A DNA stretch of 64,000 bases, from positions 29,987 to 93,986 of IMG/VR virus record IMGVR_UViG_3300029288_000118. One strand, written 5' to 3'. Under the pieces are notes generated by a model, which was given only the letters and a program-made list of their open reading frames with translations, did not search any database and was not told the origin of the DNA. Of the stretch, positions 3,444 to 31,027 are shown piece after piece (the first letter of the stretch is position 1; each line of letters begins with the position of its first letter). Position numbers and translations under genes: made by a program. The stretch is from a virus (lineage: Duplodnaviria; Caudoviricetes).

Positions 3444-3992
3444 ATGAAAACACTTCTTTTTATAATTCCAATACTTCTCTTATTGATTGGTCCGGTGGCA
3501 AATTGCCAGACAACGATAACGGGAAGCACAATGCTGGATCAAAGCCTGTCAGTTAATTCCTACATGGCTAAAGATACCACAATTACCGGAACAAAATACT
3601 CGGATATTCTGGTGCTTAATTCAAAGAGTATAACTCAAGAAGATCGGTATGTGAATTATTCCGCAGGCGCACATATTCTCGTACTCGCGAGACAAACTAA
3701 TGACAGTGTGAACTCAATAGTTTACTTGCAGGTAGGTCAAAATTTATCTGGTACCGAAGGAACCGACTATGGTACTATTTACATAGATACCCTATTGAGC
3801 ACGAGAAAACTAATAAATATTGATCTTACGCCTTATCTCGATTACAAACAAGTGAGATTAAAAGTTGTTGCAATCACCGGAGTAGGCGTATCTGCACATG
3901 CATCGTTCTTGCCCAAATGGAGCGCAATCTTAGGCGGAAAAGGTTATCTGGGAAAGATAACCGCGCCTGGAAAAGCACCTACTTTACAGTAG
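3444..3992 (+). CDS. Sec-exported beta-rich protein after the capsid gene (candidate decoration protein)
   Basis: Signal peptide MKTLLFIIPILLLLIGPVANC followed by Q; beta-strand-like mature part. Confidence 0.6.
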   Translation: MKTLLFIIPILLLLIGPVANCQTTITGSTMLDQSLSVNSYMAKDTTITGTKYSDILVLNSKSITQEDRYVNYSAGAHILVLARQTNDSVNSIVYLQVGQNLSGTEGTDYGTIYIDTLLSTRKLINIDLTPYLDYKQVRLKVVAITGVGVSAHASFLPKWSAILGGKGYLGKITAPGKAPTLQ

Positions 3993-4019
3993 CTATAATA
4001 TCAATGTATGGTAAAAAAG

Positions 4020-4053
4020 AGGGCGAGAACTGAAAAAGCTCTCGCCTTTTTTT
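4020..4053 (+). terminator. Rho-independent terminator
   Basis: AGGGCGAGA...TCTCGCCTT followed by a T-run. Confidence 0.75.
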
Positions 4054-4095
4054 ATAAACACTTATCACATAACATAAAAATAAAGGATTACGATC

Positions 4096-4662
4096 ATGGA
4101 AAATCAGAAAGTGAAATTTTATCATCCGTCCGGCAAAGGCGGAAAATTTATGACCTCAAAAGGAGAGATAGTCCTGGAGTCTAACGGGACGGCAATGGTT
4201 TCGCAAGAGATGTATGATCATCTTATGCGGATACCCAAGAATAAAGAATATCAAGATAAATTGAAGGAACTTGCGAACGAAGACAAAAAAGGCAAACAGA
4301 CTACGGAATCAAAAAAACAAGATTCACCAACTCAGCCGCCAGCATTGGATCCAACTGTAGTACCCACGCTTGAAGAATATGTAAAAGCCGGATACAAGGC
4401 AGATACGTATGAAAAGAGATTCTTTGGACTCAAAGCAGGAGATACTTACGATGGCGAAAAGGTCAAAGAGAATCTTGAACAGGCAGAGAAGGAAAATAAA
4501 ACCAATTCTCCGGATCTGAAAGAAGAAGATTTGAAAATTCTTGGAATTAAAGAATTAAAAGCTATGGCCGGAAAACGTGAGATAAAATTTGACAAAGACG
4601 CGACTAAAGATGAGCTTATTAAATTTATTCTTGATTCTCAGGCTAAAAATTCTCAGCAATAG
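4096..4662 (+). CDS. Head-region protein with C-terminal HeH/Rho_N-like motif
   Basis: IKELKAMAGKREIKFDKDATKDELIKFI; similar small genes follow the capsid gene in K-like phages. Confidence 0.6.
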   Translation: MENQKVKFYHPSGKGGKFMTSKGEIVLESNGTAMVSQEMYDHLMRIPKNKEYQDKLKELANEDKKGKQTTESKKQDSPTQPPALDPTVVPTLEEYVKAGYKADTYEKRFFGLKAGDTYDGEKVKENLEQAEKENKTNSPDLKEEDLKILGIKELKAMAGKREIKFDKDATKDELIKFILDSQAKNSQQ

Positions 4663-4709
4663 TCTATACATTAAGCAACTTCAGCGGATTACAGGAAGGA
4701 ACTTGAGTT

Positions 4710-5123
4710 ATGGGAGAGAGGAAAAAGTGCAGTGCTAATGTAAGTGCTCGTGATTGCTTTTATAAAAAAGACATGGGAACTATAAAAAAACGGTTTACGC
4801 AAATTGATGAAAAATTGCATGAAATAGCGTTTGTAAAGCTCAATGGTGCCGGGCAAGAGACACATATACAGACGGTGATGAAAGATATATGGATTGCCAC
4901 TCGATCACAGAGAGCAACAAAAGGTTTATCTGAACGATATGCAATCTGGAAACGTGATACGGCAATCGGCAGGTTTATCGGTACTCGAGGCGGAAGAATA
5001 TTGTCCTGGTTTGTCTGGGCGTGGGTAATTATTGGTTCAACCAATACTCTGGGATTGACCGATATAAAATTGAATCAAATGTTAGAAGCATTTATAAGGT
5101 ACGTTTTTAGATCAGGAGGTTAA
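4710..5123 (+). CDS. Membrane protein, holin/antiholin-like
   Basis: Single hydrophobic segment ILSWFVWAWVIIG near the C-terminus. Confidence 0.45.
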   Translation: MGERKKCSANVSARDCFYKKDMGTIKKRFTQIDEKLHEIAFVKLNGAGQETHIQTVMKDIWIATRSQRATKGLSERYAIWKRDTAIGRFIGTRGGRILSWFVWAWVIIGSTNTLGLTDIKLNQMLEAFIRYVFRSGG

Positions 5124-5125
5124 CA

Positions 5126-5476
5126 ATGGAAGAACTTCTTTATAATCCATATATAAGAATTGCAGCGGCAATCGTAGCATCGTCGTTGGCATTATCGATC
5201 ATTAATTTATTTCCCAAAATTCGAGATGGTGAGAGATGGTATCACAATAATAAGTTCCTCATTCTTATTATTGCGACGATATTTACCCTTCTTTTGACCG
5301 ATCTTGAAACATTTTTATCCGACTGGCAACTTGCATCCTTCAAGGTCTTATTCATCATAATGATTTCATTTCTTGTTGCTGTAACAAAAGGGCAAAAAAT
5401 TGTGGATTCCCTTGTGAATAAGATAGCCAACAAAATAAAAGACAAGGCAGATAGCGGTATTGATAAAAGCATGTAA
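5126..5476 (+). CDS. Putative holin (3 TM helices)
   Basis: Three hydrophobic segments and a charged C-terminal tail; AGGAGG RBS. Confidence 0.6.
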   Translation: MEELLYNPYIRIAAAIVASSLALSIINLFPKIRDGERWYHNNKFLILIIATIFTLLLTDLETFLSDWQLASFKVLFIIMISFLVAVTKGQKIVDSLVNKIANKIKDKADSGIDKSM

Positions 5477-6594
5477 TGAAAAAGCTATACCTCAATACCG
5501 ACAATATCCTTACGCTGGATTCGAGTTCAGCGCAGGTGGAAACTTACAAAGTAAGACTATCTCTTGTTGGCGAAGATGGCACGCTTCTCAAGGATAACAA
5601 TGATCAGGATTTAATTCTATTGAGCACAGGTACAGAGCCAAAGATTACTTTTGATTCCACACTCAGTAAATTTAAAGCGACAATCCATCTTGCAGACGAT
5701 ACAGCAAAACAATATGTCAGAGCCTTCTGGATAGTAACAAACGAGAACGATATTCCGGTGGAGATATCAGGTTATTATCCAGAAGAGATATCGGTTGAAA
5801 ATTCGCCAACCGATTCAACACAAGTTTTTGACCCGCTGATAGTTCCAGCTCAATATTTCATCGATTCGTTTTTAGGTGCGGATCCGAGTATAAGTGAAGA
5901 ACTCGTAAACGCGATTGCGGCCATAAACGAGAAAAACCCGGATATAATTAAGAACGAATTACTTGCTTCCCAAGACTTACTCGAAGGAGACATCAGAACA
6001 AAATTTTTCAAAACTCAATTTAATCTTGATCGAGACTGGAACGATGAAATATTTTATGCAAATTACTGGTTCCAACAAGTAGATTGGCTACCGTTGGTAA
6101 GTGTGGATAGCTACAAATTGATATACGGCAATCAAAACATTGAGTTATCTAATGATCTTGCAAGCAGTATGAAAGTAGATAAAACTCAGGGTACTATAGA
6201 ATGGTTGCCTACAATTGTTTCAGGGAATTTATTCACGATCATCATTTCGACGGTTAGTGCTCTGGCTATTTCTATGGTTGCGATGGGTGAAAGATCACGT
6301 ATTCCAGGATTGTTTAGAATAGTTTACACGGCGGGCATGGATTTTCCCAATCTGCCTGTACAGAAAAAGGAAAGAATCCGGAGGCTCATTTCACGTCATT
6401 GTTTTTGTCAGATAATGCCGAGAATAGATCAGTTAATAAGAGAAACGAGTTTGAGCCAGTCTATTGATGGTGCAAGTTTGAGTAGATCCAGCGGAGTGCC
6501 GGACATAATCAAACAATTCAAAGAAGACGAGTTAAGAGATATAGCCTTATTCCAAAAAGAACTGGGAACAAACATAGCGATCGCGGTGAGTTAG
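5476..6594 (+). CDS. Head-tail adaptor/neck protein
   Basis: Position; PLVSVDS..L.YG, IPGLFRIVYTAG and SLSQSIDGASLSRS resemble K-like neck proteins. Confidence 0.7.
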   Translation: MKKLYLNTDNILTLDSSSAQVETYKVRLSLVGEDGTLLKDNNDQDLILLSTGTEPKITFDSTLSKFKATIHLADDTAKQYVRAFWIVTNENDIPVEISGYYPEEISVENSPTDSTQVFDPLIVPAQYFIDSFLGADPSISEELVNAIAAINEKNPDIIKNELLASQDLLEGDIRTKFFKTQFNLDRDWNDEIFYANYWFQQVDWLPLVSVDSYKLIYGNQNIELSNDLASSMKVDKTQGTIEWLPTIVSGNLFTIIISTVSALAISMVAMGERSRIPGLFRIVYTAGMDFPNLPVQKKERIRRLISRHCFCQIMPRIDQLIRETSLSQSIDGASLSRSSGVPDIIKQFKEDELRDIALFQKELGTNIAIAVS

Positions 6595-6596
6595 AA

Positions 6597-7466
6597 ATGA
6601 ATAGTATTATTTGGCGTAATGTCGACGTAAACAGAATGTTCAAAACTTTTGGCGTTCAATGCTATTATTATGAAGCCAGGATAGCACCGGATCAGCGATA
6701 TGGACAAACAAAACTCGAAAGCGATGCTATACACGGTTTTAGATATAACGATCCGGTTGAAGAGCGATTAATGCGGACATCAATCAGCCAGCGAATAATT
6801 CTCAGTGAGCACGGCAGAATGTATCAAGGAGGTGCACGATTTACAATCCCGCCGGTTAAACTCGTAAATGGGATATATCAAGCTGTGTCCATGCATGAAC
6901 GGGCTTTTCTCGGAGATGTTATAGTAATGAAAACAAAATCCATGAGAGATTTTGATATTTTAAAAAAGGGTTATAGAGATCAAATATTTGCATTCGATAT
7001 AAAAAAGATTTTAAGTGTTTCATCGGTTGACAATCAAGGGGAAGAACATATATATACCTATGATACGGATTACACTATAACTATTAACGGTAAAAGTGTT
7101 TCTCTCTCCGATGGAGGAACTCCGATAGGAGAAGGGGAATTTGGAGTGGTGTTATTCGGTGGAAGCGACGTGGTTGAGATAGTGACCGCACACAACAATA
7201 ATATTGTGAATACGATAATGATTGTCTGGAAGGAAAACGGCAATCATCCGGCTGAAGGTGAAAATTATACCGTTGAATTTTTATGTAGTCCGAATTATAT
7301 CATATTTGACTATAGTGACAAAATAAGGTCTACCGAAGAGAATAATTTACCGAGAACTGTTATGTGTGTAAAAAGAGCGTATTTTAATCCTGTAAAACCT
7401 AAAATGGATGAAGTTGAACTCCGTCAGCCAATTATGGATACGCAGTCAGAGGTATATGATTCTTAA
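6597..7466 (+). CDS. Neck/head-closure protein
   Basis: Position in the neck cluster; YTYDTDYTI and P..GENYTVEF..SPNY motifs; Gly-rich insertion. Confidence 0.6.
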   Translation: MNSIIWRNVDVNRMFKTFGVQCYYYEARIAPDQRYGQTKLESDAIHGFRYNDPVEERLMRTSISQRIILSEHGRMYQGGARFTIPPVKLVNGIYQAVSMHERAFLGDVIVMKTKSMRDFDILKKGYRDQIFAFDIKKILSVSSVDNQGEEHIYTYDTDYTITINGKSVSLSDGGTPIGEGEFGVVLFGGSDVVEIVTAHNNNIVNTIMIVWKENGNHPAEGENYTVEFLCSPNYIIFDYSDKIRSTEENNLPRTVMCVKRAYFNPVKPKMDEVELRQPIMDTQSEVYDS

Positions 7467-7486
7467 ATATTTAGGAGAATATTAAA

Positions 7487-7939
7487 ATGCCAATCCCATT
7501 ACCCCCGTCTGGTGAAATAATGGTTGATCAAGAACATTATAATCCAGTAGTAGCATATTATGATGCGGATACAAACACGATTATAAATGTGACTCCAGAC
7601 ACACCGTTGCCTGTGAGTGCAAGTGTTACACTTGAATCTGAAACATTAAAAATTATCGAAGAAGTAGAAGTCACGGTCACAACCGCAGGCACGCCAGTGG
7701 CATTGCCGTCGAACACGAGCGCGAAGGCCGTGATTGTCTATAATAACAATACTAATGGAGTGAAAGTGTGTGTCGGGCTTCAGGCTACAGTTGATGCGAC
7801 AGTGGATCCAATTGTAGGCATACCTTTAGCGTTAGCCTATTCTAATTCCGGGCAAATAAATGTGAATGAAAATTCTAATGAGATATATGTAGATGCGAGC
7901 ATAAACGGTACAAAAGTTACATGCCATATTTTAGGATAA
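7487..7939 (+). CDS. Structural accessory protein, paralog of 28492-28986
   Basis: Shares AGTPVALPSNTSAKAVIVYN and NEIYVDASINGTK with the distal paralog. Confidence 0.6.
   Translation: MPIPLPPSGEIMVDQEHYNPVVAYYDADTNTIINVTPDTPLPVSASVTLESETLKIIEEVEVTVTTAGTPVALPSNTSAKAVIVYNNNTNGVKVCVGLQATVDATVDPIVGIPLALAYSNSGQINVNENSNEIYVDASINGTKVTCHILG
7685..7744 (+). repeat. 60-bp near-identical direct repeat, copy A (partner 28735-28794)
   Basis: 58/60 identical; a second 39-bp block 7877-7915 matches 28924-28962 at 38/39. Confidence 0.9.
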
Positions 7940-7944
7940 AAACT

Positions 7945-10900
7945 ATGAAAAAGTTATTATCAATTATATTCCTATTATTTATCACAATCCAGATAGGCTT
8001 CAGTCAAGGTAGCTATTGGAATCTGGTGATGAACAAACTTGTGCCAATAAATTCGAGCTGGAAGCTGGCAGATTCTTTAATCACTGGGACCCGATTCTTA
8101 CTCGCGAGCGATTCAACGGGTGATAACGGATATACGAAGAACTGGAAACTGGGAGGGTATCAACCTATAAGTAATAATCTTACAATCTATGCAGGTATTA
8201 CTCCAAGTGCTGATGCTCAGACATTACTTAGTAGAACATTTGCTCAAATGCGGGCTGATATAGGTGCATCAGATTCGACTATTTCAAGAGACACCACTTA
8301 TTCTGAAAGTGTCAGTCAAATAACTGAAGGAGATAATATAACTGTTGAGAAGCATGGTAAAGGATATAAAATCAATTCTACTGGTGGTTCAGACTTTAAT
8401 GTCTGCGATTCAACATTAGTGTTCAATATAAACAGTTTTCCCGGTGTGGACGCAACGGGGGCAGACACATGCCAAACATCTATACGATCTGCAATAGATT
8501 ACGTTACCTCGCTTGGTGGGAAGATTTATTTCCCGCCAACAGGAATTTATTTAGTTCGAGGCAGGTGTCTTAATTATCAGAGTAAAGCCGCTCTTAACGT
8601 TGAAACAGTAATTGAAGCTGGTATTAATCTGCCAAGCAATGCACATTTAATTCTTGACGGTACAATACAAGTCATGACCGATACACTTGCGATTAACTGT
8701 CCTATTCTGATTTCTAATGGAGTTAAAAATGTAACAATCGAAGGCAGAGGGAAAATCAGAGGAGATAGAACTACTCACGATTTTACAAAAGATCAAGAGA
8801 TTAGTACTACGCATGAGTTTGGACACTTAATAGTAATGGGAAACTGCGATAGCATTGTTATCAGAGATATAAACCTTGTTGGGGCTACGGGTGATGGCAT
8901 ATGCATATATAGGCAAGGTCAAGTGTATTTGGAATATTTCAATTATACAAGAAATTTCCCGACCAACGTATTAATTGATAATGTGCAAATAGATTCTTGC
9001 CGCAGAGTTGGGATAAATAACTGCTTTGGCGAATATATAACTATACGTAATTGCAAATTTAATTATATCGGTATAGACGATGGCTATGAAGATGGTGTCG
9101 CACCTCGTGCAGCGATTAATCATGAATCTGGTCTTGGTAAAAAAGCAGAGCACATAAAGATTGAAGGTGGCTTTAGTGTTGGCTGTAGGGGTGGGGTTAA
9201 TTTATTCGACGCCAATTACATAGTCTGTCAGGGTTTCATTACCGATGCTGTAATAGCAATGGGCTACGCTTGCAATGGTTCTATCACTGGTTGTGTGGCA
9301 AAGTCAATAAGCAGTATAGGTGCAAGACCTAACAGTCATGGTGAGTTCACCTATGCTGGCGATTCTTTGTCAATCACAACCGATGCAAATCATGGTTACT
9401 CGGTAGGCGATTCTGTATCTATGGATATTTTAGTTTCAACAACAAAATACAAAATTGCAGGTGGGACATTTGTTATTACTTCTTCTGCCGCCGCAGATGA
9501 GTTTGTAGTGCATAAAACATCGCTTGGCGCAACGTCTGGATATGTTAGACTATTGGGTAGATATACTGTAACCGATGATGTTGTACACGTAGAATTTCCA
9601 TACACGCACGACTTGGGGCCGGGAGAACCAATACATGTAACCTACCGACACTCTAATGGTATTGTGCAATACAATGGAGACGGAGATCCGGAAATGGGGA
9701 ATTTCATTATCACGTCTATTGACTCGCCAACGAATGCTTCAAAAGGTTATTCGTATATAGACGCAGATGTAACTACGTCAGCAGGAGCGTTGTATGACCG
9801 ATTCATCGAAAATAATTTTGAAATTGCAAATAATACTATAACAAACGGTGGCATAGTTTTAGCGGGGCATAACGTAAATTGTCATCACAACATTATACAA
9901 AATGCGGAGAATGGTATTTATGCAACTGCTTTTTTCAACGGTAAAATATCAAATAATATTATCAGCAACGTAAACAAAGGTATATATGCCTCTATTGTTC
10001 AAACTGAAATTTCTGAAAATAAAATTTATAGTTCGGGTTCAACCGGAATACAATTAACCGGGGGAAGAGATATTACGTTGTCGGGTAATAAAATTTATGA
10101 CAGTTATAGGGGGATATATATTACAGGTTGTAGTGCGCCTCGTATTATTGATAATACAATAGACGTTACTGGATTTACAAAAACATCAGCCAACGACGGT
10201 ATATATATATCTGCATCTGATTCGGCGAGAATACTTTTGCAGGGCAATAAGTTAATAAATTATTCGGGTTCGCAAGGATTTGATATTGATGCAAAGGCAG
10301 ATATTATAAATAACTATATTATTGACTTTAAAGGCACAACAGCAATAGACCTTTCAGTATCGGGAGCGACAAGACAAAGAAATAATATAATGGATAACTA
10401 CATTTCATTCACACGTGGCTCCGCAGGTGGAACGGGAATCCTGACTTCAGGTGATTCATTGGCAATAATTAAGGGTAATACTATCTGGACTACAAATAGT
10501 AATGCGGTAACAACAGGTATCAATACATCTGGTAGTGTATATAGTGCAATCAAACTTAATGTCTTACGCTCTGGTGCTATGACTCATCACGCAAGCGATA
10601 CACTGCAACTTAATCTTGTAGGTGACACTTTTGATCCGCCGCTGCCGGGATTGTATAAACATTTCTACGCCTTGATAGATACGCCCTTGTATAGATACAC
10701 TCAGGATTCTATTATTGCTCTGACATACAAAACAACGGAGGCAATTACTATCGCAGGTATTCAGATTTCCTGCGATGCCGATCCAACCACAGAAATTGCA
10801 GGTAATCTTGTTTATGCTGATGATTTAATTACAAGAGCAAATCCGGTTATAATCAATTCAGTCAATACGGCAACTGGTGTGTTAACTGATGTTTCAATCA

Positions 10901-11013
10901 CGAGTGCAAGTGTGGCAGCAGGTAAAGCGATATACTTACGTTTAACTGCTGAACCTGATGCGGCAACCAAATGGGTGTGTGTGGATGTGGTTTATAAAGC
11001 AGCCGGATACTAA
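7945..11013 (+). CDS. Right-handed beta-helix (pectate-lyase-like) spike/depolymerase with Sec signal peptide
   Basis: Start at ATG 7945, MKKLLSIIFLLFITIQIGFS-Q; GVDATGAD...IRSAID...GGKIYFPPTGIY beta-helix cap; many Asn/Ile-rich coils. Confidence 0.8.
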   Translation: MKKLLSIIFLLFITIQIGFSQGSYWNLVMNKLVPINSSWKLADSLITGTRFLLASDSTGDNGYTKNWKLGGYQPISNNLTIYAGITPSADAQTLLSRTFAQMRADIGASDSTISRDTTYSESVSQITEGDNITVEKHGKGYKINSTGGSDFNVCDSTLVFNINSFPGVDATGADTCQTSIRSAIDYVTSLGGKIYFPPTGIYLVRGRCLNYQSKAALNVETVIEAGINLPSNAHLILDGTIQVMTDTLAINCPILISNGVKNVTIEGRGKIRGDRTTHDFTKDQEISTTHEFGHLIVMGNCDSIVIRDINLVGATGDGICIYRQGQVYLEYFNYTRNFPTNVLIDNVQIDSCRRVGINNCFGEYITIRNCKFNYIGIDDGYEDGVAPRAAINHESGLGKKAEHIKIEGGFSVGCRGGVNLFDANYIVCQGFITDAVIAMGYACNGSITGCVAKSISSIGARPNSHGEFTYAGDSLSITTDANHGYSVGDSVSMDILVSTTKYKIAGGTFVITSSAAADEFVVHKTSLGATSGYVRLLGRYTVTDDVVHVEFPYTHDLGPGEPIHVTYRHSNGIVQYNGDGDPEMGNFIITSIDSPTNASKGYSYIDADVTTSAGALYDRFIENNFEIANNTITNGGIVLAGHNVNCHHNIIQNAENGIYATAFFNGKISNNIISNVNKGIYASIVQTEISENKIYSSGSTGIQLTGGRDITLSGNKIYDSYRGIYITGCSAPRIIDNTIDVTGFTKTSANDGIYISASDSARILLQGNKLINYSGSQGFDIDAKADIINNYIIDFKGTTAIDLSVSGATRQRNNIMDNYISFTRGSAGGTGILTSGDSLAIIKGNTIWTTNSNAVTTGINTSGSVYSAIKLNVLRSGAMTHHASDTLQLNLVGDTFDPPLPGLYKHFYALIDTPLYRYTQDSIIALTYKTTEAITIAGIQISCDADPTTEIAGNLVYADDLITRANPVIINSVNTATGVLTDVSITSASVAAGKAIYLRLTAEPDAATKWVCVDVVYKAAGY

Positions 11014-11084
11014 AATGAGCACAGATCTCTACGTCCGGCTTATTTTTAAGACTGAGATATTAATAAATTTCAAAGGAGTATCAA

Positions 11085-12691: not shown

Positions 12692-12725
12692 CCGGTTTCT
12701 CCCCTGCCTAAGCTATTCGTGCCAG

Positions 12726-12751
12726 AAAGCCCTATTAGATAGGGCTTTTTT
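12726..12751 (+). terminator. Rho-independent terminator ending the head/neck operon
   Basis: AAAGCCCTAT-TAG-ATAGGGCTTT plus T-run. Confidence 0.85.
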
Positions 12752-12755
12752 GTTT

Positions 12756-12805: not shown

Positions 12806-12846
12806 ACTTTTGATTTACTTTGCTTCATTTAACAACAAAATAAATA

Positions 12847-13770: not shown

Positions 13771-13779
13771 GAGAGTATC

Positions 13780-17316: not shown

Positions 17317-19622
17317 TGGCCGATGATTTCTCAAAAAAATTAGGTATTGATGTAAAAGCCAATCTGGATCCCTCTGGTTTTGAGAGAGGAAGCGATAGGA
17401 TTATAGCAAGCGCGGAACATCAAAGAACGGCGTTAGAGGCACTGAGAAAATCTTCGCAAGAACTTCAACAGTTACAACAAGTATATTTAAAGACTCCGGA
17501 ACTCTATGCTCAACAAAGAGCGCAGTATACTGGAAGAGGAGCTTCAATATTTTCGCCTGAAGCGGAAAAGTTAAGACTTGCATCACTTGAACATCAAATT
17601 AGATTAGCCGGAGGCACAGCTCCGACAATAGCTGGTGGTGGCACAATTGAAGAGTTAGAGCAAAGGGATATTACAACCAGGCGGTTGAGGGGATTGGTTG
17701 AAGAAAAATTTTCTCAGTTCGGTGGTATGTCAAGAACTCAAAGAAAAGCCTTAATGGGTGACGTACAACCGCACATTCAAGAACTTCAAAGACGATATGG
17801 AGCGACACAATCCTATTATTCTGGCAGAGTGAGAGAGGCTACTGCGGAATTTGAGGCAATGTCTGGAGAGGATCAGTTAAAGAATCTTGATGCATTCAAT
17901 CACAAGATTCAGGTTTACGAGGATAATGCCAGAAAAGCACGGGTAGCATCCGACGAATTAGCTAAATCGACTAAGAAATTCACGGAAGAGGCGGGATTAG
18001 CGTCAAAATCGATTCCAGCTTACGCTGCAAGCGTCGTTAATATGGGAATAACCATTGGACAAGGGATAGCTCAAATATCTCGTGCAGGTGCGCTTGCGTT
18101 CGATTACAGCAGTCCTTATGCAATGTATTCAGCTCAACAACAGTTTGAGATCCAGCGGAGCAAGACTTTATGGAATACAGGAGGTTCCATAATAGGTCAA
18201 ATTGGCGGTGCAGCGGTAGGAGCTATGACAGGAATAAATCCTTTTGCTGCAAGCTATATAGGTGGAATGCTCGGTGGGGGAGCTGGAGATATTATTTCTA
18301 CGTTCTTAAATATCGAACCTGAAAGACAATTGAAATACATGGGACAGATGTATGGTAAATCGAGTCAAGCTGTGGATATGTTTACAGGAATTCAAGGTCA
18401 GGAATACGGTATTTCTCGGCGGACCGCAGCAACTCCAGCGCAAATTGCAGCAGTGCTCAGGAGATACGGTAACTTAGGTATTGATCAAGCACAAGCAGCT
18501 CAAATAGCAAATCAGTATGTGAATGCTACAGGCAGTATGAGTGTTGCTGGTTTAGACGAATGGATTAATATGTATGTCCGGACGGGAATAATGCCTCATG
18601 GGTTATTAGAAAAAATTTCCGGCGGAAGTTCGGTTAACATGCTTGCAAACGCAGGATTAGCAATGGGATTACCGAGAGCGAGATATGCTGATCTGAGTCA
18701 ATTTATGCAACAAGCTACAAGTGTTGCTGGTAGGTTGTTTACCAATCCTATGGATATAGAACGCGCAACATCAATGACGATGATGTTACCATATACACTG
18801 TATGGTGAAGGCGTGGGATCAAATAGGTGGGCAACATCCTTTGAAGGTATGCAACAAATAAGTCAAGGTTTCCAAGCATTGGGACAATCAAAGAATACTG
18901 GGGAGCAAGCATTTCTTTTTAACGCACTTAATCAAAGCGGTCAAAGTTGGCGAGAGACACTATTAAGAATGCAAGAAGGAATTTACGGTAAAGGAAATTT
19001 AAGGGACATATTGCAGTATACCCGTCGAGCATACGGTGGACGCGGTGGAGATGCATTGTTTTCGATGTTGTCAGAAAAAGGAGTTAACCCAGACATCGTA
19101 AGAAAACTTGTTGGAGAATTTGAAGGAAATTATAGCGGGTTAATTGCACGTATCGGCGAAGGTGCGGTCACAGAAAAAGACCTTTATAAAAAACTTGGTA
19201 TGACAGAAGTATCTCCATTAGCGAGAATTAAAGCAGGAGAATCGATAGCCGTGACTGAATCGGCAAGAGGCATGGCTGAAGCCTTTGCTACCGGACTTGC
19301 TCAATTCAATGTTCAGGTAGCAAGATTAGCTACTGGAGCTGATACACAGAGAAAAATTCAAGATATGCTGGGTAATGTTATACGTTCGGTTGAAGAAGCA
19401 TTTCAATCGCCAAAGCCAGCAAAACCGTTAAATCAAAACGATTTTTCGCCAGAAGAATGGGAGAGAATTCAACGTGTAAGAAAATCAATGCAGTCTCTTG
19501 TATTGCCAGACGGAAAGAAAATTAACTTCACTGTAGAAACAACCACAACCGTGAATCTTGATTCGATTTTAAGTACAGTGCCAAGATCACAATATAGAAC
19601 TACATTTCCTTCTCATCCATAA
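17316..19622 (+). CDS. Tape measure protein
   Basis: After the chaperones; helical, Ala/Gly/Gln-rich, with a Gly-rich hydrophobic segment. Confidence 0.85.
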   Translation: MADDFSKKLGIDVKANLDPSGFERGSDRIIASAEHQRTALEALRKSSQELQQLQQVYLKTPELYAQQRAQYTGRGASIFSPEAEKLRLASLEHQIRLAGGTAPTIAGGGTIEELEQRDITTRRLRGLVEEKFSQFGGMSRTQRKALMGDVQPHIQELQRRYGATQSYYSGRVREATAEFEAMSGEDQLKNLDAFNHKIQVYEDNARKARVASDELAKSTKKFTEEAGLASKSIPAYAASVVNMGITIGQGIAQISRAGALAFDYSSPYAMYSAQQQFEIQRSKTLWNTGGSIIGQIGGAAVGAMTGINPFAASYIGGMLGGGAGDIISTFLNIEPERQLKYMGQMYGKSSQAVDMFTGIQGQEYGISRRTAATPAQIAAVLRRYGNLGIDQAQAAQIANQYVNATGSMSVAGLDEWINMYVRTGIMPHGLLEKISGGSSVNMLANAGLAMGLPRARYADLSQFMQQATSVAGRLFTNPMDIERATSMTMMLPYTLYGEGVGSNRWATSFEGMQQISQGFQALGQSKNTGEQAFLFNALNQSGQSWRETLLRMQEGIYGKGNLRDILQYTRRAYGGRGGDALFSMLSEKGVNPDIVRKLVGEFEGNYSGLIARIGEGAVTEKDLYKKLGMTEVSPLARIKAGESIAVTESARGMAEAFATGLAQFNVQVARLATGADTQRKIQDMLGNVIRSVEEAFQSPKPAKPLNQNDFSPEEWERIQRVRKSMQSLVLPDGKKINFTVETTTTVNLDSILSTVPRSQYRTTFPSHP

Positions 19623-21451
19623 TGATAAATAATCCAGACATAAGACGGCCAAAGCCAATATTTTTAAATCTTTCACCAACAATAGAGGGAATGGATGATC
19701 TATCAGATTATGCAATGATGATCCATACAAAAAAGAATTTGTCTACAAACGCCGGGACATGGGAAGCAACATTAGTGCCCTCACCTTATGCTCAAGAGAG
19801 GATAAGCAGAGCAGATTTTCAGAATATTGTTTATCAAAGTATACGACCAATGGATTGTGTTATACTCGGTCAGTGGGGAAAAGGATTCGACGATGATGAC
19901 GAATATTCACCTCAGCATTTCATGTTTGGTTTTGTAGATAATGTATATCGATCATTTTCAAGGGTAAACGGCAGAATAGAACGAAGCGTTAATGTAAGAG
20001 GACGGGACGCGACTAAGTTGTTTCTTGTAGATAATATTGCGAATGCTCCAGAGCTTGCGACTAATCCTGATCTTATGGATGCGTTCGTTAATAAAAAGGT
20101 TTTAGAATTTTTACAGTATTTGCGCGGGACCTTTAATGGCAAAAGTATTTTTATAAATAGCTGGCTTCCGCAAGTAATATACTGGTTGCTATCAAACGCA
20201 CCATCAATGAGAATAGGATTAGATTATTTACAAGGAAAAGAATCTAACAAGGGAGATCCGAATGATTTATTGAGTCCTGCTGATTTATTCCAAACGTATT
20301 TAATGGCAAGGGCTGATGAAAAGGTATACAACATACCGATGTCTATTTACTCAGGCAGTCTGTTAAATTATTTCACGAGCGTGATTGATCCAGCTTTCTA
20401 CGAATTATGGATTGATACTATGCCATATAATTCTCCGGCTAATTCATCTGGAATGACAAGACCATGTTTGATCATGAGACCCAAGCCTTATGATTATGAA
20501 TGGGAAAAAACGAATTCAAAAGGTGAAGATTTGTTAAATGTGTTTTGTGAATTAAGTAGTAGTAATCCCCTATCATCGATAAATAAATGGAACGAAACAA
20601 ATAATAAAAATTATAATTGGCAAAAATTTATCCATCCAATAACAGCTTGCAGTTTTACGATAAAAGATGAAGACGTAATGCAATGCAATCTTGGCATTTC
20701 AGATGAAGAGATATTCACCTTGTTTCGTGTGAGTGGAAAAGGTGATATTATTGGGACTGGATCATTGGCTACGTTTGGATTGAATTTTCCACTTATTGAC
20801 GCTATGATGATGAAGTCTTATGGATTGAGAGAATTATCGCTTGAAAGTGGTTTAATACCGCCTTCGGTTGACGATCTATCTCAGAGATTTAATACTAAAC
20901 TTGGAAATATCGTACAGAGAGAAGAAAGAGAAGAATATGCTGAAGCATGGGGGAGCAACATATTGACTACATTGGGAGTGTTTAAGAAAGAAGATATTCC
21001 TAATTATGTGGAAGACTGGGATAGGCAATTAAAAAACAATGCTCTGCTTAGACTAATCACTACAGAAAAAAGAGATAGATTATGGAGAATGAATAGATAC
21101 AATCACTTGCTTGAAAGTGGAACTCTGACAATCAAGGGCGGCAATGTTTTTGTTGGGCAGAAAATATTATCTTCTTTGGATTCAGGTATATTTTGGACAC
21201 GAGGATTATTTGATCCACAAACAAGGCAAAGAAATTCTAAGAGTGGAATGGAGTTTTATTGTGTAGGCGTAGAGCAACATGCTGGCTGGGGACAGACCTG
21301 GAAGACGGGATTGTCTTTAACACGAGGTGCAAATATGAGTGAACTACAATCATATTATACTAATCGTCACTTAGACAAAGCTAATGGTAGTCAAAACCAG
21401 GTCTTCGCAAGAAATACAGAAGGCGAATCAAGCGCAAAGGAGTTATCGTAA
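19622..21451 (+). CDS. Baseplate hub (gp27-like)
   Basis: After the tape measure; MFGFVDNV...VRGRDATK and FYCVGVEQH...TGLSLTRG hub motifs. Confidence 0.75.
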   Translation: MINNPDIRRPKPIFLNLSPTIEGMDDLSDYAMMIHTKKNLSTNAGTWEATLVPSPYAQERISRADFQNIVYQSIRPMDCVILGQWGKGFDDDDEYSPQHFMFGFVDNVYRSFSRVNGRIERSVNVRGRDATKLFLVDNIANAPELATNPDLMDAFVNKKVLEFLQYLRGTFNGKSIFINSWLPQVIYWLLSNAPSMRIGLDYLQGKESNKGDPNDLLSPADLFQTYLMARADEKVYNIPMSIYSGSLLNYFTSVIDPAFYELWIDTMPYNSPANSSGMTRPCLIMRPKPYDYEWEKTNSKGEDLLNVFCELSSSNPLSSINKWNETNNKNYNWQKFIHPITACSFTIKDEDVMQCNLGISDEEIFTLFRVSGKGDIIGTGSLATFGLNFPLIDAMMMKSYGLRELSLESGLIPPSVDDLSQRFNTKLGNIVQREEREEYAEAWGSNILTTLGVFKKEDIPNYVEDWDRQLKNNALLRLITTEKRDRLWRMNRYNHLLESGTLTIKGGNVFVGQKILSSLDSGIFWTRGLFDPQTRQRNSKSGMEFYCVGVEQHAGWGQTWKTGLSLTRGANMSELQSYYTNRHLDKANGSQNQVFARNTEGESSAKELS

Positions 21452-21453
21452 AA

Positions 21454-23446: not shown

Positions 23447-23448
23447 TC

Positions 23449-24282: not shown

Positions 24283-24292
24283 TGGATAGCCC

Positions 24293-25693: not shown

Positions 25694-25705
25694 AGAGGTA
25701 ATAAT

Positions 25706-26080
25706 ATGTCAGTCACAGTCAAGTTTTTTCGTGGGTTAGAAGCCGAACTTCCAACATTGGAGGACGGGCAACCAGGTTGGACGACCGATACCCACAAATT
25801 GTTTGTAGGTTCTGAAGCTGGCAACATTGAGCTTAGTGGTGGTGGAGGTGGTAGTAGTGGAATAATTTCTGGGAATGCTACGCTGGGCGCAGATGGAACA
25901 GTAACCGTGCTTAATGCGAGTGTAACTACAAAAGAAAAAGTGTTCCTCAACCGCAATTCAGGCAATAGCAATGAAGCTATTTACGTGAGTGCAGCAGTTT
26001 CCGGAGTATCTTTTACTATCACATCAACAGCAGGTTCTATTGATACAGGACTCGTTATAGGATATATTATTGTATTATAA
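25706..26080 (+). CDS. Short fibre protein with Mtd_N/hyaluronidase-N-like domain
   Basis: RGLEAELPTLEDGQPGWTTDTHKLFVG followed by a poly-Gly hinge. Confidence 0.7.
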   Translation: MSVTVKFFRGLEAELPTLEDGQPGWTTDTHKLFVGSEAGNIELSGGGGGSSGIISGNATLGADGTVTVLNASVTTKEKVFLNRNSGNSNEAIYVSAAVSGVSFTITSTAGSIDTGLVIGYIIVL

Positions 26081-26102
26081 TTGTATTTTAAAAGGAGAAA
26101 CC

Positions 26103-28157
26103 ATGAAAAAACTTATTTTAATCTTAGCGGTATTATTGTTCACCTTGCCGGCATATTCGCAATGGGTGAGAAAGAATTCGGGAGGCACGGTTTCAACAAC
26201 TGGTACTCGGATAAATCTACAGCGGAGCACCGATACATTACAATTAAACCTTACTAATACTATATTGAGTGGACAGGTTCCAGGAGATTTAATACCGAGA
26301 TATACAGATACATATAGTCTCGGTTCGTCCACAAACTTGTGGTTGAAAGGATGGCTTTCAGAAATAGAAGCTGTATTATTTGCTGAAAATACTATCACGG
26401 TATTCGGCGGATATTCCTATATAACAAAAGATGCTGGTACGATTCAAACTGATGTTGAATCAGGAACTACTACGATTGATTTTGGTAGGACAATGACTCC
26501 CAATGATTTTGTTGTATTAAGAAATTCTGGAGAGGTTGAATACATACAGGTAGGTTCGTTAGTATCGGGCACAGCCTACAATGTAACTCGTGATCTTGAT
26601 GGGACAGGTGCTAATAGTTGGGCGCAAGGGACTCCATTTGCTGTTTTAGGATATAATGGGACTGGTCGAATAGAAATGAAGTCCGGTTCAAGCGCAGGTG
26701 ATACAAGAATAAGTTTATTTACACAGGGAACTACTTATAATGATCAAATAGAAAGACTGAGACTCGGTGATTTAAACCAATTGGCGGGTTATTCTACAAC
26801 ACATTATGGAATGTGGGGAGGAGCTGGGACAAAAACATATTTTTATATTGCAGATGATTCTACGGCGCAAATAGCTGGATATAACTTTAATGATACATCA
26901 ATGTACTCTGGAGTTGGAGAGTATGGCAATTCAAATACTCCGTTTTTTCAAAGTTCTTCAGGCAGATTTTCTTTAGGGGACAAATTGACATGGGATGGTA
27001 CGACTCTCGGTTTAACGGGAGAAATAGTTGTTTCAGGCACATATAGCTGGGACTCATTAGCAGATAAACCTACAACGCTTGGAGAGATCAGTCCGACAGA
27101 AGCATCGAAGTTGGCTGGGATTGCCAGTGGAGCGACTGTGGGGGCTACATGGGGAACGGATCTTTCTGGAATACCAAGTCATTTAGCAACAACTGCACCG
27201 GACAACTCTCTCTCTATAACGTCTACATTTATGGGTTTTCATGCAACTGGAACTAATTGGCCAATAAAGATTGCGAACGACGGTGGCGTAGGGAAGTTTT
27301 ATGCAGGTGATGGATCCAGCAAATTCATCGATTGGAATGGAAGTGATTTAACGGTTCAAGGTAATATATATACTTCTTCGGGTGCAAAGAGAACGATATT
27401 AAGTAGTTCAACTAATGAATTGTCTTTTTATGAATCTTCGGCAGAAAAAGTCCGTATTGGTTCTGGAGTATTCGGATCAAATTCGGGTGTTCTTGTCAAT
27501 AACGGTGTGGTATATTCTTTAACAACACTTGCAGATGAACCAGCAATATATGCATCAGCAAATAATGCATCTTGGGCAACCGGAGGAAGATTCGGCGCGA
27601 CTGGAGCTGGCAATAATAAAGCTATAACATCAAGTGCAACTGGTGGAGCTTATAATTATTCTTTTTATGGATATTCAGGTGATATATATAATGCTGGAAA
27701 TATAAACATAGGTTCAGGTTATAATTATAAGATTAATGGCACAAATTTATCCGCTGCAAACGTAGGAGCTATTGCTTTAGGAGGGGCATATACTGATTTA
27801 GATGGATACAGTAAAATAGGCACGGGTTCGACTCAAGTTGCAAGAGGTAATCATACTCATACTGGGGTTTATGAGCCTGCTTTTAGTGTATTGTCCTGGT
27901 CAAAAGGTGGTACTGGTAATAATTCATTTACATCTGGTCAAATAATAATAGCAGATAATTATGGAGACGGATATTTTACATCATCTGGTTATTATCCTAC
28001 CAGTTTTGCGCCAGCAACACAGGGAGCAACCTTCGGGACCCATGATTATGCTGGATACTATGTTGCATTATCCAGCGGTGGTTCTGTAACAAAGCAATTA
28101 GAATATGTAGCAGTCACAATAAACGGAGTAACATATAATTTCTTAATAAAAAATTAA
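26103..28157 (+). CDS. Tail fibre-like protein with Sec signal peptide
   Basis: ATG 26103 after AAAGGAG; MKKLILILAVLLFTLPAYS-Q; fibre motifs YSLGSSTNLW, FSLGDKLTWDGTTL, WDSLADKP, ARGNHTH, SKGGTG. Confidence 0.8.
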   Translation: MKKLILILAVLLFTLPAYSQWVRKNSGGTVSTTGTRINLQRSTDTLQLNLTNTILSGQVPGDLIPRYTDTYSLGSSTNLWLKGWLSEIEAVLFAENTITVFGGYSYITKDAGTIQTDVESGTTTIDFGRTMTPNDFVVLRNSGEVEYIQVGSLVSGTAYNVTRDLDGTGANSWAQGTPFAVLGYNGTGRIEMKSGSSAGDTRISLFTQGTTYNDQIERLRLGDLNQLAGYSTTHYGMWGGAGTKTYFYIADDSTAQIAGYNFNDTSMYSGVGEYGNSNTPFFQSSSGRFSLGDKLTWDGTTLGLTGEIVVSGTYSWDSLADKPTTLGEISPTEASKLAGIASGATVGATWGTDLSGIPSHLATTAPDNSLSITSTFMGFHATGTNWPIKIANDGGVGKFYAGDGSSKFIDWNGSDLTVQGNIYTSSGAKRTILSSSTNELSFYESSAEKVRIGSGVFGSNSGVLVNNGVVYSLTTLADEPAIYASANNASWATGGRFGATGAGNNKAITSSATGGAYNYSFYGYSGDIYNAGNINIGSGYNYKINGTNLSAANVGAIALGGAYTDLDGYSKIGTGSTQVARGNHTHTGVYEPAFSVLSWSKGGTGNNSFTSGQIIIADNYGDGYFTSSGYYPTSFAPATQGATFGTHDYAGYYVALSSGGSVTKQLEYVAVTINGVTYNFLIKN

Positions 28158-28172
28158 AAGAGGAGAAACATC

Positions 28173-28484
28173 ATGAAAAAGATTATCGGTCTACAAATAT
28201 TATTAATTATTGCCGGCACGATCTTGTTTGCGCAAGACAAGCAAAATATCAGTATTGCGAAAAAAGATACGTCGGTTTGGGTTAAAAAATCAATTCAAGA
28301 GAATTTTGTTCAATCGAAACTTAAAGAGCTTAATCAAATGCAGGTACAATTAGACGCGAGGAAGAAAGCTGTCGACGCAGATCAAAAAGCTATTGATGGA
28401 GCTATAAAGTATTATGAAGGTCAAATGGATCTGATTAATTTATTGTCGGATTCAGTGCTGGTAGACAAGAGGAAATTAGAGTAA
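28173..28484 (+). CDS. Exported coiled-coil protein (fibre chaperone-like)
   Basis: Signal peptide ending TILFA-Q; coiled coil ending IDGAIKYYEG; directly follows the fibre gene. Confidence 0.6.
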   Translation: MKKIIGLQILLIIAGTILFAQDKQNISIAKKDTSVWVKKSIQENFVQSKLKELNQMQVQLDARKKAVDADQKAIDGAIKYYEGQMDLINLLSDSVLVDKRKLE

Positions 28485-28491
28485 TAATAAA

Positions 28492-28986
28492 ATGTCTGAG
28501 CAAATTTATAGACGTGCGAATATATTAAAGTCTTTTCAGACTCTTTTGAAGTATGATGCTTTTTCAAAGCATGATAACGACAGATTCCCCCTTCCTCTTG
28601 TCGCTTATTATGATCCAGACATCGAAGAAGTTACCTATGTCACAGAGGCAAACAAACTGCCTATTACGGCAACCGTAAACCTGCTTGCGAACGAATTGAA
28701 GATCATTGCTCAGGGTACAGTCACGATTGCAGAAGCAGGCACGCCAGTGGCATTGCCGTCAAACACGAGCGCGAAAGCCGTGATTGTCTATAATGGAAAC
28801 TCAACTGGAGTAATAATTGTCGTGGGTAAAGCTACAATAGATGCTGTTTCGGAACCGCCTGTAGGACTACCGCTTGTTTTTCCATACTCTAACAGCGGTG
28901 TATTGAGAGTAATGGCTAATAGCAATGAGATATATGTAGATGCAAGCATAAACGGTACAAAATTAACTTACAGCATATTAGGTTAA
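28492..28986 (+). CDS. Structural accessory protein, paralog of 7487-7939
   Basis: Collinear similarity to the 150-aa protein at 7487. Confidence 0.6.
   Translation: MSEQIYRRANILKSFQTLLKYDAFSKHDNDRFPLPLVAYYDPDIEEVTYVTEANKLPITATVNLLANELKIIAQGTVTIAEAGTPVALPSNTSAKAVIVYNGNSTGVIIVVGKATIDAVSEPPVGLPLVFPYSNSGVLRVMANSNEIYVDASINGTKLTYSILG
28735..28794 (+). repeat. 60-bp near-identical direct repeat, copy B
   Basis: 58/60 identity with 7685-7744. Confidence 0.9.
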
Positions 28987-29945
28987 TGATGAATACGAGA
29001 GATACATTATTATACAGTATAGCTACGGAATTGCAATTATTGCGAGACTATATAAACAGGCTTCCAAAGGTTAAAGAAAGTAGCATAGGTGGACAACTAT
29101 GGACAGATTTTTTAAAAATATTTCTCAGTAGAAGAGAAGAAAAAACAAATTATGCTTTTCCCAGCAAAACCACAGCATTGTTACACAATCTTTTTGGCGA
29201 TTGTGATACCGATGAAATAGGAGATCCAATAAGTATTTTAGATTTTGAAAAAGCGACCTATGCTATCCATAAAGCACGAGGGACAGAAAATGGGATATTA
29301 GCCGATATTAAAAGAATCTGTAACAGTGTCAACGTAGAAGTAAGAGGATATCCACAAAGTCAATGTGGTTGGATAGGGGATGTTACAAGCCCGGAATTTG
29401 CGTGGAAAATTCTGGACGATACAGGAGGGAAGATCACGTTTGATTTGCCAGCAGATGGAGGTGAATTCGGGGATACTCCATCCGAGACTGTTGATGGTGG
29501 TTCCTTCGGTATACCAATAACTGAACCCGGAATAATAGAATTTATATTCACAGAGAATGCAACAACGATATTAGCGTTACTCGGTATAACAGAAAACTGG
29601 GAAGATTTAGACGGTATAACGGAAATAATGGTCACAACGGAACAAGCGAGCAGTGTTTTATTCTCTGGATTGGGCACATTATCAATGTTCGGCAAAACAC
29701 TGGAACAGATAGAAGATTATTTTTCAGCCGATATGTATATAAACGCAAAGGCATTGATCAGTGTAAATGCGCTTATTTATGATCCTGACAACTCATTGTG
29801 TTATATGGATTTAGACAACATGGTTCTTATTGATGCAGAGAATAATGGTGGAAGATCATCTTTAGAGATAGAAAATATTATAAGACATGATTTTGTGCCC
29901 ATAAAGTATAATATAAAAACAAACATTGAAAGAGTGCCAGTATGA
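28986..29945 (+). CDS. Baseplate wedge gpI-like protein with acidic insertion
   Basis: HKARGTENGI..DI motif and C-terminal FVP; central DGGEFG/DGGSFG insertion. Confidence 0.6.
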   Translation: MMNTRDTLLYSIATELQLLRDYINRLPKVKESSIGGQLWTDFLKIFLSRREEKTNYAFPSKTTALLHNLFGDCDTDEIGDPISILDFEKATYAIHKARGTENGILADIKRICNSVNVEVRGYPQSQCGWIGDVTSPEFAWKILDDTGGKITFDLPADGGEFGDTPSETVDGGSFGIPITEPGIIEFIFTENATTILALLGITENWEDLDGITEIMVTTEQASSVLFSGLGTLSMFGKTLEQIEDYFSADMYINAKALISVNALIYDPDNSLCYMDLDNMVLIDAENNGGRSSLEIENIIRHDFVPIKYNIKTNIERVPV

Positions 29946-30331
29946 AAAAGTTATTTTTATTATTTGTGACAATGATTGTCTGCACAATAGATGCATCTGG
30001 ACAATCTAATGTAGAGTATACCCCTAATTTCAAATTCAGAACTATCAAAAAAGGATATACAGGGGATTGGGCTGGATCCCAGAGGGACACAACGGCAAAC
30101 AGCGGATTAAACTACAATGCATTAATGAATGAAATATTGTGGAGTATGATATTTACATCGACTTATTCAGTGAATCAAACACTGAAAGACTCGGTATTAA
30201 ACGGTGGTCGATTACAGCTTCATACGATAGTAGCTGGAGATAGTGTGTTTGGCAGGATATTCGTGCGAGATACCGATACAACTCTCGTGTTTTGGAATGG
30301 AGGATGGAAAGTGATTAAAGATTTAAGGTAG
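29942..30331 (+). CDS. Exported protein with a fibre-N-terminus-like motif
   Basis: Signal peptide ending DASG-Q; YTPNF.F....G..GDW......GLNYN. Confidence 0.55.
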   Translation: MKKLFLLFVTMIVCTIDASGQSNVEYTPNFKFRTIKKGYTGDWAGSQRDTTANSGLNYNALMNEILWSMIFTSTYSVNQTLKDSVLNGGRLQLHTIVAGDSVFGRIFVRDTDTTLVFWNGGWKVIKDLR

Positions 30332-30370
30332 CTTAATTAATTATTCAACAACTAATTTAAAGGTGTTATC

Positions 30371-31027
30371 ATGAAAAAGATAGCAATTACTTTATTATTC
30401 CTTATCGGAATAATTTCACTATCAGCTTCTCAGAACTTGCTGATAAAAACGAATGAGGGATGGAAAGCTCTTGACGGTACATTCAATTATGATAATAATA
30501 ATATTTCCATACCTCAGCCAGTTACAGAGGGAGTGATATTGCCTTCGGCAAGTACTCATATTTGGGCTGCTGGTGGCTCAGTGATCGCTGATACGCTGGG
30601 GACGGACGTTTCTTGCTCTAATGGAGCACGATATTGGGTAGAACTCATGATCCCTTATAATGTGACATTGACAGGCTTGTCTTATTTAGTAGGCTCAGTG
30701 GGCGGGACTGATTCTGTGGTAGTTCAGTTATGTAGTTCAACAGGAGTTGAGGTTGCGACTTCACGAGCACCTGGTTCTGCTGCCGTAATAGTAGGAACCG
30801 CAAAACAATTTCAGAGCGTTCCGTTTACTACGCCTTATGTGGCTAAAGCAGGTCTGTATTATGCAACAGTACAATTTAATGGCACGACAGCAAAATTCAG
30901 GACATATTCAGTGCCAGGAAGCAAGTTTATAGGTGCTTCAGCGGCCGGGACCTGGCAAACGAAAGCCAACATTACGCCAGGAACGACGTTCACGGTGGAT
31001 AAAGCACCTATCATAATAACGTATTAA
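30371..31027 (+). CDS. Exported beta-sandwich protein
   Basis: Signal peptide ending SLSAS-Q; VTLTGLSY.VG...QSVPFTTPYVAKAGLYY. Confidence 0.6.
   Translation: MKKIAITLLFLIGIISLSASQNLLIKTNEGWKALDGTFNYDNNNISIPQPVTEGVILPSASTHIWAAGGSVIADTLGTDVSCSNGARYWVELMIPYNVTLTGLSYLVGSVGGTDSVVVQLCSSTGVEVATSRAPGSAAVIVGTAKQFQSVPFTTPYVAKAGLYYATVQFNGTTAKFRTYSVPGSKFIGASAAGTWQTKANITPGTTFTVDKAPIIITY

Follow-up and report, generated by a model that had tools for sequence, protein, structure and literature searches.

Does a tailed phage route part of its own particle through the cell envelope of its host? The question is raised by a stretch of 64,000 nucleotides from a virus of the Caudoviricetes (Duplodnaviria; IMG/VR record IMGVR_UViG_3300029288_000118, positions 29,987 to 93,986), referred to below as the window. 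Six genes in it, lying among capsid, tail and baseplate genes, encode proteins that start with an apparent Sec signal peptide, or leader, followed directly by Gln. A first-pass annotation of the window had proposed that these proteins fold in the periplasm and dock on virions at or after lysis, or else are displayed by the infected cell. Our analysis makes export and periplasmic maturation of the six proteins highly probable, judging from their sequences. It leaves roughly even chances that the exported parts end up on the particle, a reading that draws on gene position, on variability and on analogous proteins of cultured phages.

Leaders Followed by Gln in the Virion Module

Leaders were called by rule, with our own hydrophobicity scan of all 122 open reading frames (ORFs) of the contig from which the window is taken. 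The six ORFs, named here by their first position in the window, carry the leaders MKTLLFIIPILLLLIGPVANC (3444..3992), MKKLLSIIFLLFITIQIGFS (7945..11013), MKKLILILAVLLFTLPAYS (26103..28157), MKKIIGLQILLIIAGTILFA (28173..28484), MKKLFLLFVTMIVCTIDASG (29942..30331) and MKKIAITLLFLIGIISLSAS (30371..31027). All lie on the + strand, as do the other window genes described below. Each protein begins with MK and a hydrophobic core and has Q at position +1 after the apparent cleavage site, just as first described. The leaders combine a basic MK(K/T) n-region, a hydrophobic core that spans 12-14 residues (as many as 17 in 28173) and a short c-region; the residue at -1 is small in all six, and that at -3 is small in four and Leu or Gly in the other two. 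Their total length of 19-21 residues is that of signal peptides and too short for a membrane anchor. The starts of 7945 and 26103 are internal ATGs within ORFs that open at 7921 (ATG) and 26070 (TTG), and the public gene calls of their relatives begin at MKK.

A Gln at +1 is the hallmark of signal peptidase I substrates in Bacteroidetes (the Q-rule), where it is cyclised to pyroglutamate, stabilising extracytoplasmic proteins (Bochtler 2018, PMC5837995; 2023 follow-up PMC10653852). The scan returned a seventh ORF with leader and Gln outside the window (contig 4754-5209, 151 aa, SLQG-Q, the hyphen marking the cleavage site), among early/non-structural genes, which indicates that export by this phage also serves at least one protein outside the virion module. 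With Gln making up 4.0% of residues, its presence at +1 in all seven has a probability of ~7e-6 or less, allowing five candidate cleavage sites for each. Two lipoproteins (33187, FTG-C; 33807, FTS-C) and several plain membrane proteins were also found. The capsid, sheath, tube, tape measure and baseplate proteins and the fibre at 31058 showed no leader in the scan, which bears out the earlier observation on these proteins. The placement of the leader proteins in the virion module holds as well, six of the seven leader ORFs of the contig falling within its 33 genes (hypergeometric P = 0.0015).

Conservation of the Leaders and Expected Destination

Comparison with a 95-kb near-isogenic relative (loci L001, L002 and L010) shows that the leaders of all six proteins are kept, with 16-20 of ~20 positions identical, conservative changes and the Gln retained. 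For the 129-aa protein 29942, 16 of the 20 leader positions are identical, with the hydrophobic character preserved; for 3444 the figure is 19 of 21. Leaders also persist in distant homologues with different N-terminal modules, namely P0050 (AYG-Q), P0052 (MAA-Q) and a 466-aa fibre in contig L003 (LLS-Q), so that the first-pass suggestion to look for the signal in homologues was answered in both close and distant relatives. Within the family sharing the domain of the fibre 26103, ~19 of the 188 collected members have a leader, and all 19 have Gln at +1 (N-termini read by eye). The leaderless member P0005 starts at the mature start of the leader-bearing P0017 (55% identity over 38 aa), indicating that the leader has been added in front of an otherwise ordinary fibre N-terminus. 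Leader and Gln occur also on fibre homologues and small neighbours in the high-GC phage contigs L005 (67%) and L006 (60%), and the Q-rule signature is thus not confined to low-GC Bacteroidia-type hosts. The siphophage-like contig L005, which holds one of these leader-bearing fibre homologues, encodes a RAMP protein, Csf3 (type IV CRISPR-Cas-like) and a PAPS reductase at 18504-21259.

The general O-glycosylation motif of Bacteroidota, said to have been worked out by Fletcher, Coyne and colleagues, is D-(S/T)-(A/I/L/V/M/T). Such D[ST][AILVMT] sequons occur 26 times in the six mature chains, with 9.8 expected by shuffling (~2.7x, p<0.0005), and the same test found no enrichment in the leaderless virion proteins. 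The excess is strongest in 7945 (13 vs 4.8) and in 29942 (4 vs 0.47), the latter being the most sequon-rich of the six. Export is strongly supported because the Q-rule is obeyed, the leaders are kept in close and distant relatives and the mature chains are enriched in sequons.

None of the six proteins matched the C-terminal sorting domain of the type IX secretion system (PF18962 / TIGR04183; Pfam E<=0.1, NCBIfam E<=1), and Cys is absent from the cleavage site in five of them. The sixth, 3444, has an atypical VAN-C with Gln after the Cys and could alternatively be read as an atypical lipoprotein. In view of the missing sorting domain and the lack of a clear lipobox, the expected destination is the periplasm rather than the cell surface. 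Display by the infected cell, which the first-pass annotation had offered as an alternative, finds no footing in these features, nor were there signs of an outer-membrane barrel, although no test was dedicated to these.

Exported phage proteins are also encoded by morons, which have their own promoter and terminator and an odd composition. Five of the six genes are instead separated from their neighbours by 5-40 nt or overlap them, and their GC content and GC content at third codon positions (GC3) are those of the neighbours. Such spacing and composition mark them as late-operon genes and speak against recently acquired morons. The gene at 3444 is less clear-cut, with gaps of 75 and 103 nt and a downstream hairpin. 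Scans for sigma-70 promoters and for terminators performed no better on the window than on shuffles, the models used not covering Bacteroidota promoters.

The Spike, the Fibre and the Lectin-Like Protein Vary

Among the virion-module proteins compared with the relative, identities lie at 93-99% with three exceptions: the spike 7945, whose body is replaced, the 684-aa fibre 26103 (77%) and the 218-aa lectin-like protein 30371 (84%). All three carry leaders, and the fibres without a leader are 95-99% identical between the two phages, so that variability of the host-range type is confined to leader-bearing proteins.

The 1022-aa product of 7945..11013 (leader GFS-Q) is a right-handed beta-helix protein of the tailspike/depolymerase type, which upholds its earlier description as a beta-helix spike. 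Its body matches PF13229 (E 2.7e-26, 92.5 bits), TIGR03804 and the tail-spike family phrog_2234, and it contains 17 Cys. A conserved mature N-terminal module of ~55 aa precedes an exchangeable body. In the relative's spike (P0051) the first 81 aa are 80% identical to 7945 and the body is an unrelated beta-helix; in the homologue P0050 a body like that of 7945 (53%) follows a different leader-bearing N-module (AYG-Q). Spikes bound to particles are built in this way, from a constant N-module and a swappable body, and by analogy the module is a putative particle-binding element.

Just upstream of the spike, 7487..7939 encodes a leaderless 150-aa protein of a widespread viral family. Its paralogue at 28492..28986 (164 aa, likewise leaderless; 94.5% identical in the relative) shares 60% identity with it over 131 aa. 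These two genes lie beside or within both exported gene clusters, and their products are candidate adaptors or, alternatively, candidate pre-export chaperones. When the 7487 protein was paired with residues 1-100 of the mature spike for complex prediction, the score was 0.00, which counts neither way.

The assignment of 26103..28157 (684 aa, leader AYS-Q) as a tail fibre is borne out by homology. The domain at residues 60-240 recurs, at 45-65% identity, in 1,164 proteins; the majority have no leader and start like ordinary fibres, and some end in Peptidase_S74. A GNHTH motif lies near the C-terminus. The full monomer model is poor (predicted local distance difference test, pLDDT, 56), with only residues 80-235 usable; the modelled beta-barrel resembles the insertion barrels of lambda gpJ, the phage Chi tail tip and the JBD30 baseplate, at middling Z scores of 7-11. 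The 77% identity to the relative's fibre is distributed in mosaic blocks. This fibre has no leaderless twin. Between the Baseplate_J gene and 26103 lies a leaderless mini-fibre stub of 124 aa with a Gly-rich linker (25706..26080), which matches K1-lyase_C (PF24146, E 3.5e-10); its N-terminus is Mtd_N-like by a weak PF18454 match below the cut-off.

Directly after the fibre gene, in the position of a chaperone, 28173..28484 encodes a 103-aa protein (83 aa mature, leader LFA-Q) that is 98% identical in the relative. It had been described as the coiled-coil partner of the fibre; the adjacency stands, and the coiled coil is a reading of the sequence. Small leader-bearing coiled-coil genes follow or adjoin leader-bearing fibre genes also in L003 and L005, unrelated contigs of 38% and 67% GC. 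In L003 a small lipoprotein gene (4437-4754, minus strand, LFIG-C) lies between such a fibre gene and a leader-bearing coiled-coil gene. We considered 28173 as an i-spanin and rejected this, given its LFA-Q site of the signal peptidase I type and the distance of 4.7 kb to the nearest lipoprotein gene (33187).

The gene order in this region is sheath initiator, Baseplate_J, stub 25706, fibre 26103 and small coiled coil 28173. In phage P2 the module is ordered W-J-I-H-G, running from baseplate through fibre to chaperone. The order in the window mirrors that of P2, placing 26103 (at the position of gpH) and 28173 in what, by gene order, are the fibre and chaperone slots; both carry leaders. For a chaperone, export would be pointless unless the fibre really does fold beyond the cytoplasm.

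The third variable protein, 30371..31027 (218 aa, leader SAS-Q), has a lectin-like jelly-roll fold in a confident AlphaFold2 model (pLDDT 89). Structurally it comes closest to a capsid-associated chain of cyanophage A4 (Z 15.9); the Bxb1 tail tip (12.9) and the phi812 baseplate (11.1) rank next, and numerous carbohydrate-binding modules (CBMs) come after them. We collected 120 homologues, and 72 of the 114 that start with Met have a hydrophobic leader.

No fold or family could be assigned to the remaining two proteins, 3444 and 29942. That all six are appendages, as first supposed, is therefore too broad a statement, since 28173 looks like a helper and these two lack an assignable role. The 182-aa product of 3444..3992 (leader ANC-Q; 98.9% identical in the relative) follows directly on the major capsid gene, the position of a decoration protein. 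It has no Pfam, PHROG or NCBIfam match, and its Atlas neighbours, viral hypothetical proteins, serve as leads only. A strong GC-rich hairpin of 10 bp (4022-4046) follows the gene, and the gap to the capsid gene is the one of 75 nt. The hairpin could act as an attenuator grouping 3444 with the highly expressed capsid transcript. The protein 29942..30331 (leader ASG-Q) is 94.6% identical in the relative. Its mature N-terminus was tried as a canonical fibre N-terminal motif, and the idea was dropped when a BLAST comparison with the whole set of collected fibre proteins returned no significant match.

Leader-Bearing Proteins Annotated as Virion Proteins in Cultured Cellulophaga Phages

Particle proteomics is available for cultured phages of Cellulophaga, and we took the tandem mass spectrometry (MS/MS) evidence from the GenBank notes. 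In phi18:3, gp085, gp086 and gp087 are annotated from MS/MS as virion structural, structural and tail proteins, respectively, and all three have a leader followed by Gln; none of the other nine MS-annotated proteins of this phage has one. In the unrelated phi10:1, four MS-annotated structural proteins, gp091-094, all carry leader and Gln. The first 118 residues of the pectate-lyase-like gp086 of phi18:3 recur, 82-83% identical, in proteins from four other Cellulophaga phages whose bodies differ. No sequence similarity was detectable between the window's proteins and these leader-bearing proteins. The leaders go unmentioned in the GenBank records and in Bartlau et al. 2021 (PMC8776804).

Proposed Assembly Route and Alternative Explanations

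On the route that we propose, SecYEG would move the six proteins across the inner membrane and signal peptidase I would cut before Gln, which a host glutaminyl cyclase would then turn into pyroglutamate. Several of the exported proteins would probably be O-glycosylated in the periplasm, and the beta-helix protein may form disulfides. The spike 7945, the fibre 26103 and the lectin-like 30371 would represent variable host-recognition parts, with 28173 as their exported helper. Capsid, contractile tail and baseplate would be built in the cytoplasm, and the exported parts would join the particle only when holin and endolysin merge the compartments, at or just before lysis. Docking would proceed via the conserved mature N-modules onto leaderless proteins, for which 7487, 28492 and 25706 are candidates. 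We infer cleavage, pyroglutamate formation, glycosylation and every docking step. The first-pass proposal of periplasmic folding and docking thus fares differently in its two halves: export is sustained by the Q-rule, by conservation and by the sequons, and docking is supported indirectly, by variability, gene position and the MS annotation in Cellulophaga phages. A wider reading, to which we give slightly less than even odds, is that assembly divided between two compartments applies to many tailed phages of Bacteroidota, those with contractile tails among them, with exported, capped and glycosylated fibres and spikes, aided by exported chaperones, snapping onto leaderless adaptors once lysis breaches the inner membrane.

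Several points weigh against assembly in two compartments. The proteins of this phage are predictions from its genes, the docking partners are candidates, and the leader calls are rule-based. To our knowledge, assembly is otherwise cytoplasmic in every tailed phage studied. Parts joining after lysis would face dilution, and the leaderless fibres (31058, 5476) could be enough for infection. The fibre 26103 is not enriched in sequons (3 vs 2.8 expected) and contains no Cys. As for the Cellulophaga data, proteins of the envelope or of vesicles may have co-purified with the particles analysed by MS/MS, and the annotation is silent on removal of the leader.

The exported proteins might instead act from the periplasm on the infected cell's own envelope, masking or destroying receptors or glycans, and never join the particle. 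They would then exclude superinfecting phages and keep progeny off debris and vesicles, following the logic of T5 Llp or of a receptor-destroying enzyme; small exported proteins beside fibre genes do recall llp and cor. Such a role would share the well-supported export, and the lipoproteins near the lysis genes, together with the seventh leader protein among non-structural genes, indicate that the Sec route serves non-virion jobs. Phage proteins obeying the Q-rule have indeed been read as envelope modifiers (Matrishin et al. 2023, PMC10367356). Masking proteins should, however, track the receptor-binding proteins of the virion, and here the leaderless fibres are conserved, whereas the exported spike, fibre and lectin vary. 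The 684-aa protein, moreover, retains the complete architecture of a fibre, occupies the fibre slot and lacks a leaderless twin, the spike bears the particle-bound signature of conserved N-module and swappable body, and the analogous Cellulophaga proteins are MS-annotated as virion proteins. We regard action on the envelope as somewhat unlikely.

The proteins could also be free enzymes and lectins that leave the cell at lysis or in outer-membrane vesicles, strip or bind the capsule and biofilm of neighbouring cells and so aid the spread of progeny. Many phages make soluble depolymerase, and the beta-helix depolymerase fold of the spike and the CBM-like fold of the 218-aa protein would suit such a task. 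Proteins released at lysis need no export signal, however, and a full-length fibre with its helper in the canonical slot, the N-module of the spike and the virion annotation of the analogues are left unexplained, which makes free enzymes quite unlikely. It is very unlikely that the hydrophobic N-termini do not serve export at all, being removed by a phage protease, acting as membrane-active segments in infection or remaining as uncleaved inner-membrane anchors. Our leader calls are rule-based, and some 'signal peptides' of capsid proteins have been suggested to be cut by the prohead protease (Matrishin et al. 2023, PMC10367356). Yet leaders of 19-21 residues built on the n-h-c plan fall short of anchor length, the excess of sequons implies that the chains are exposed to the periplasm, and Gln at +1 in 7/7 leaders here and in ~19/19 family members is the signature of the host signal peptidase I and cyclase, for which there would otherwise be no reason.

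Contig, Lysis Genes and Host

The phage is uncultured. Its single 93,986-bp contig, of which the window forms the right-hand 64 kb, has no terminal repeat and bears all its long ORFs on the + strand. The contractile-tail virion module spans window positions 300-33,500 and includes the major capsid protein, sheath, tube, tape measure, baseplate (sheath initiator, Baseplate_J), fibres and a GH108 endolysin. The capsid protein matches phrog_752 (E 1e-58) and is ~27% identical to those of SPO1-like phages and of the Bacteroides phages DAC19-23; no related record was found in viral_contigs. A collection of 50,697 phage records contained no match to the opening 25 kb of the window or to the fibre 26103. 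The host is probably a member of Bacteroidota, judging from the Q-rule itself, the GC content of 38% and the 27% capsid similarity. No host genome or spacer link was found, and searching prokaryote genomes twice with the fibre domain yielded a single fragment and no prophage-based host.

The leaderless genes next to the second exported cluster include 28986..29945 (319 aa, 97.8% identical in the relative), the stop of which overlaps the start of 29942, and the tail fibre 31058..32716 (552 aa, with PHROG tail-fibre matches and 94.7% identity in the relative), which served as our comparison case. BLASTP of the 33807 lipoprotein (33807-34217) against this fibre gave no significant similarity (best E 1.9), and the pair was therefore not enlisted as a model for the masking of receptors.

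The GH108 endolysin (32805-33218, PF05838, E 2.3e-16) has no leader and is overlapped by a lipoprotein gene (33187-33531, lipobox FTG-C). These lysis genes at 32805..33531 are the ones that would mix the two compartments. No holin is obvious beside the endolysin. A 116-aa protein encoded at 5126-5476, among head-proximal appendage genes, has three hydrophobic segments by eye and could be a candidate holin. Elsewhere in the pair, at 9004-9341 of the relative's locus L010, short copies of the first 24-40 codons of a 940-aa gene (window 37430-40252) recur upstream with 96% and 65% identity.

Implications

If the proposed route is true, the receptor-binding proteins of such phages are made, folded and probably sugar-coated by the envelope machinery of the host, and the determinants of phage host range are glycoproteins glycosylated by the host. 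Expression for phage engineering would change accordingly, the cytoplasm of E. coli lacking this processing, and host-range prediction and the relation of lysis timing to particle completion would be affected as well. A leader with Gln at +1 on fibre genes would also offer a cheap marker by which uncultured phages could be linked to hosts in Bacteroidota. The cultured Cellulophaga phages, for which particle proteomics data exist, lend themselves to a direct test.

Comparison with Known Systems

We found no description of leader-bearing tail fibres in the searchable literature, papers on flavobacterial and Bacteroides phages included. The nearest parallel is provided by the Cellulophaga phages, where an MKK-type leader with Gln likewise occurs in a cluster of fibre and pectate-lyase-like proteins in the tail-fibre region (in phi18:3 beside the lysis genes), and where gp086 combines a conserved N-module with swapped beta-helix bodies, as 7945 does in the window. 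These phages belong, according to their records, to Pachyviridae and Assiduviridae, whereas the window phage has a contractile-tail module. The Q-rule substrates of Bacteroidota share the leader anatomy and the Gln, but are host envelope proteins, while the cargo here is phage fibre and spike, for which pyroglutamate is assumed by analogy. Five Q-rule signal-peptide genes of Porphyromonas gingivalis phages, left without an assigned function, were read as modifiers of the host outer membrane (Matrishin et al. 2023, PMC10367356). Cleavage would expose Gln in their products just as here, but that paper neither identifies them as fibres or spikes nor connects them with the virion.

In P2 and T4, fibre and chaperone are cytoplasmic, whereas their counterparts in the window both carry export leaders. 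The fibres of T4 are added last, and their addition works in vitro. T5 Llp, phi80 Cor and lambda Lom and Bor are likewise exported proteins encoded by phages beside tail or fibre genes. They are, however, small lipoproteins or outer-membrane proteins with expression signals of their own, in contrast to the six proteins of the window, which include a full-length fibre and a spike. To these systems the present case adds a phage with a contractile tail whose fibre and chaperone slot is P2-like, two near-isogenic phages whose comparison places all the variability in exported proteins, a spike with a conserved module directly after its leader, and a pair of leaderless paralogues as candidate adaptors.

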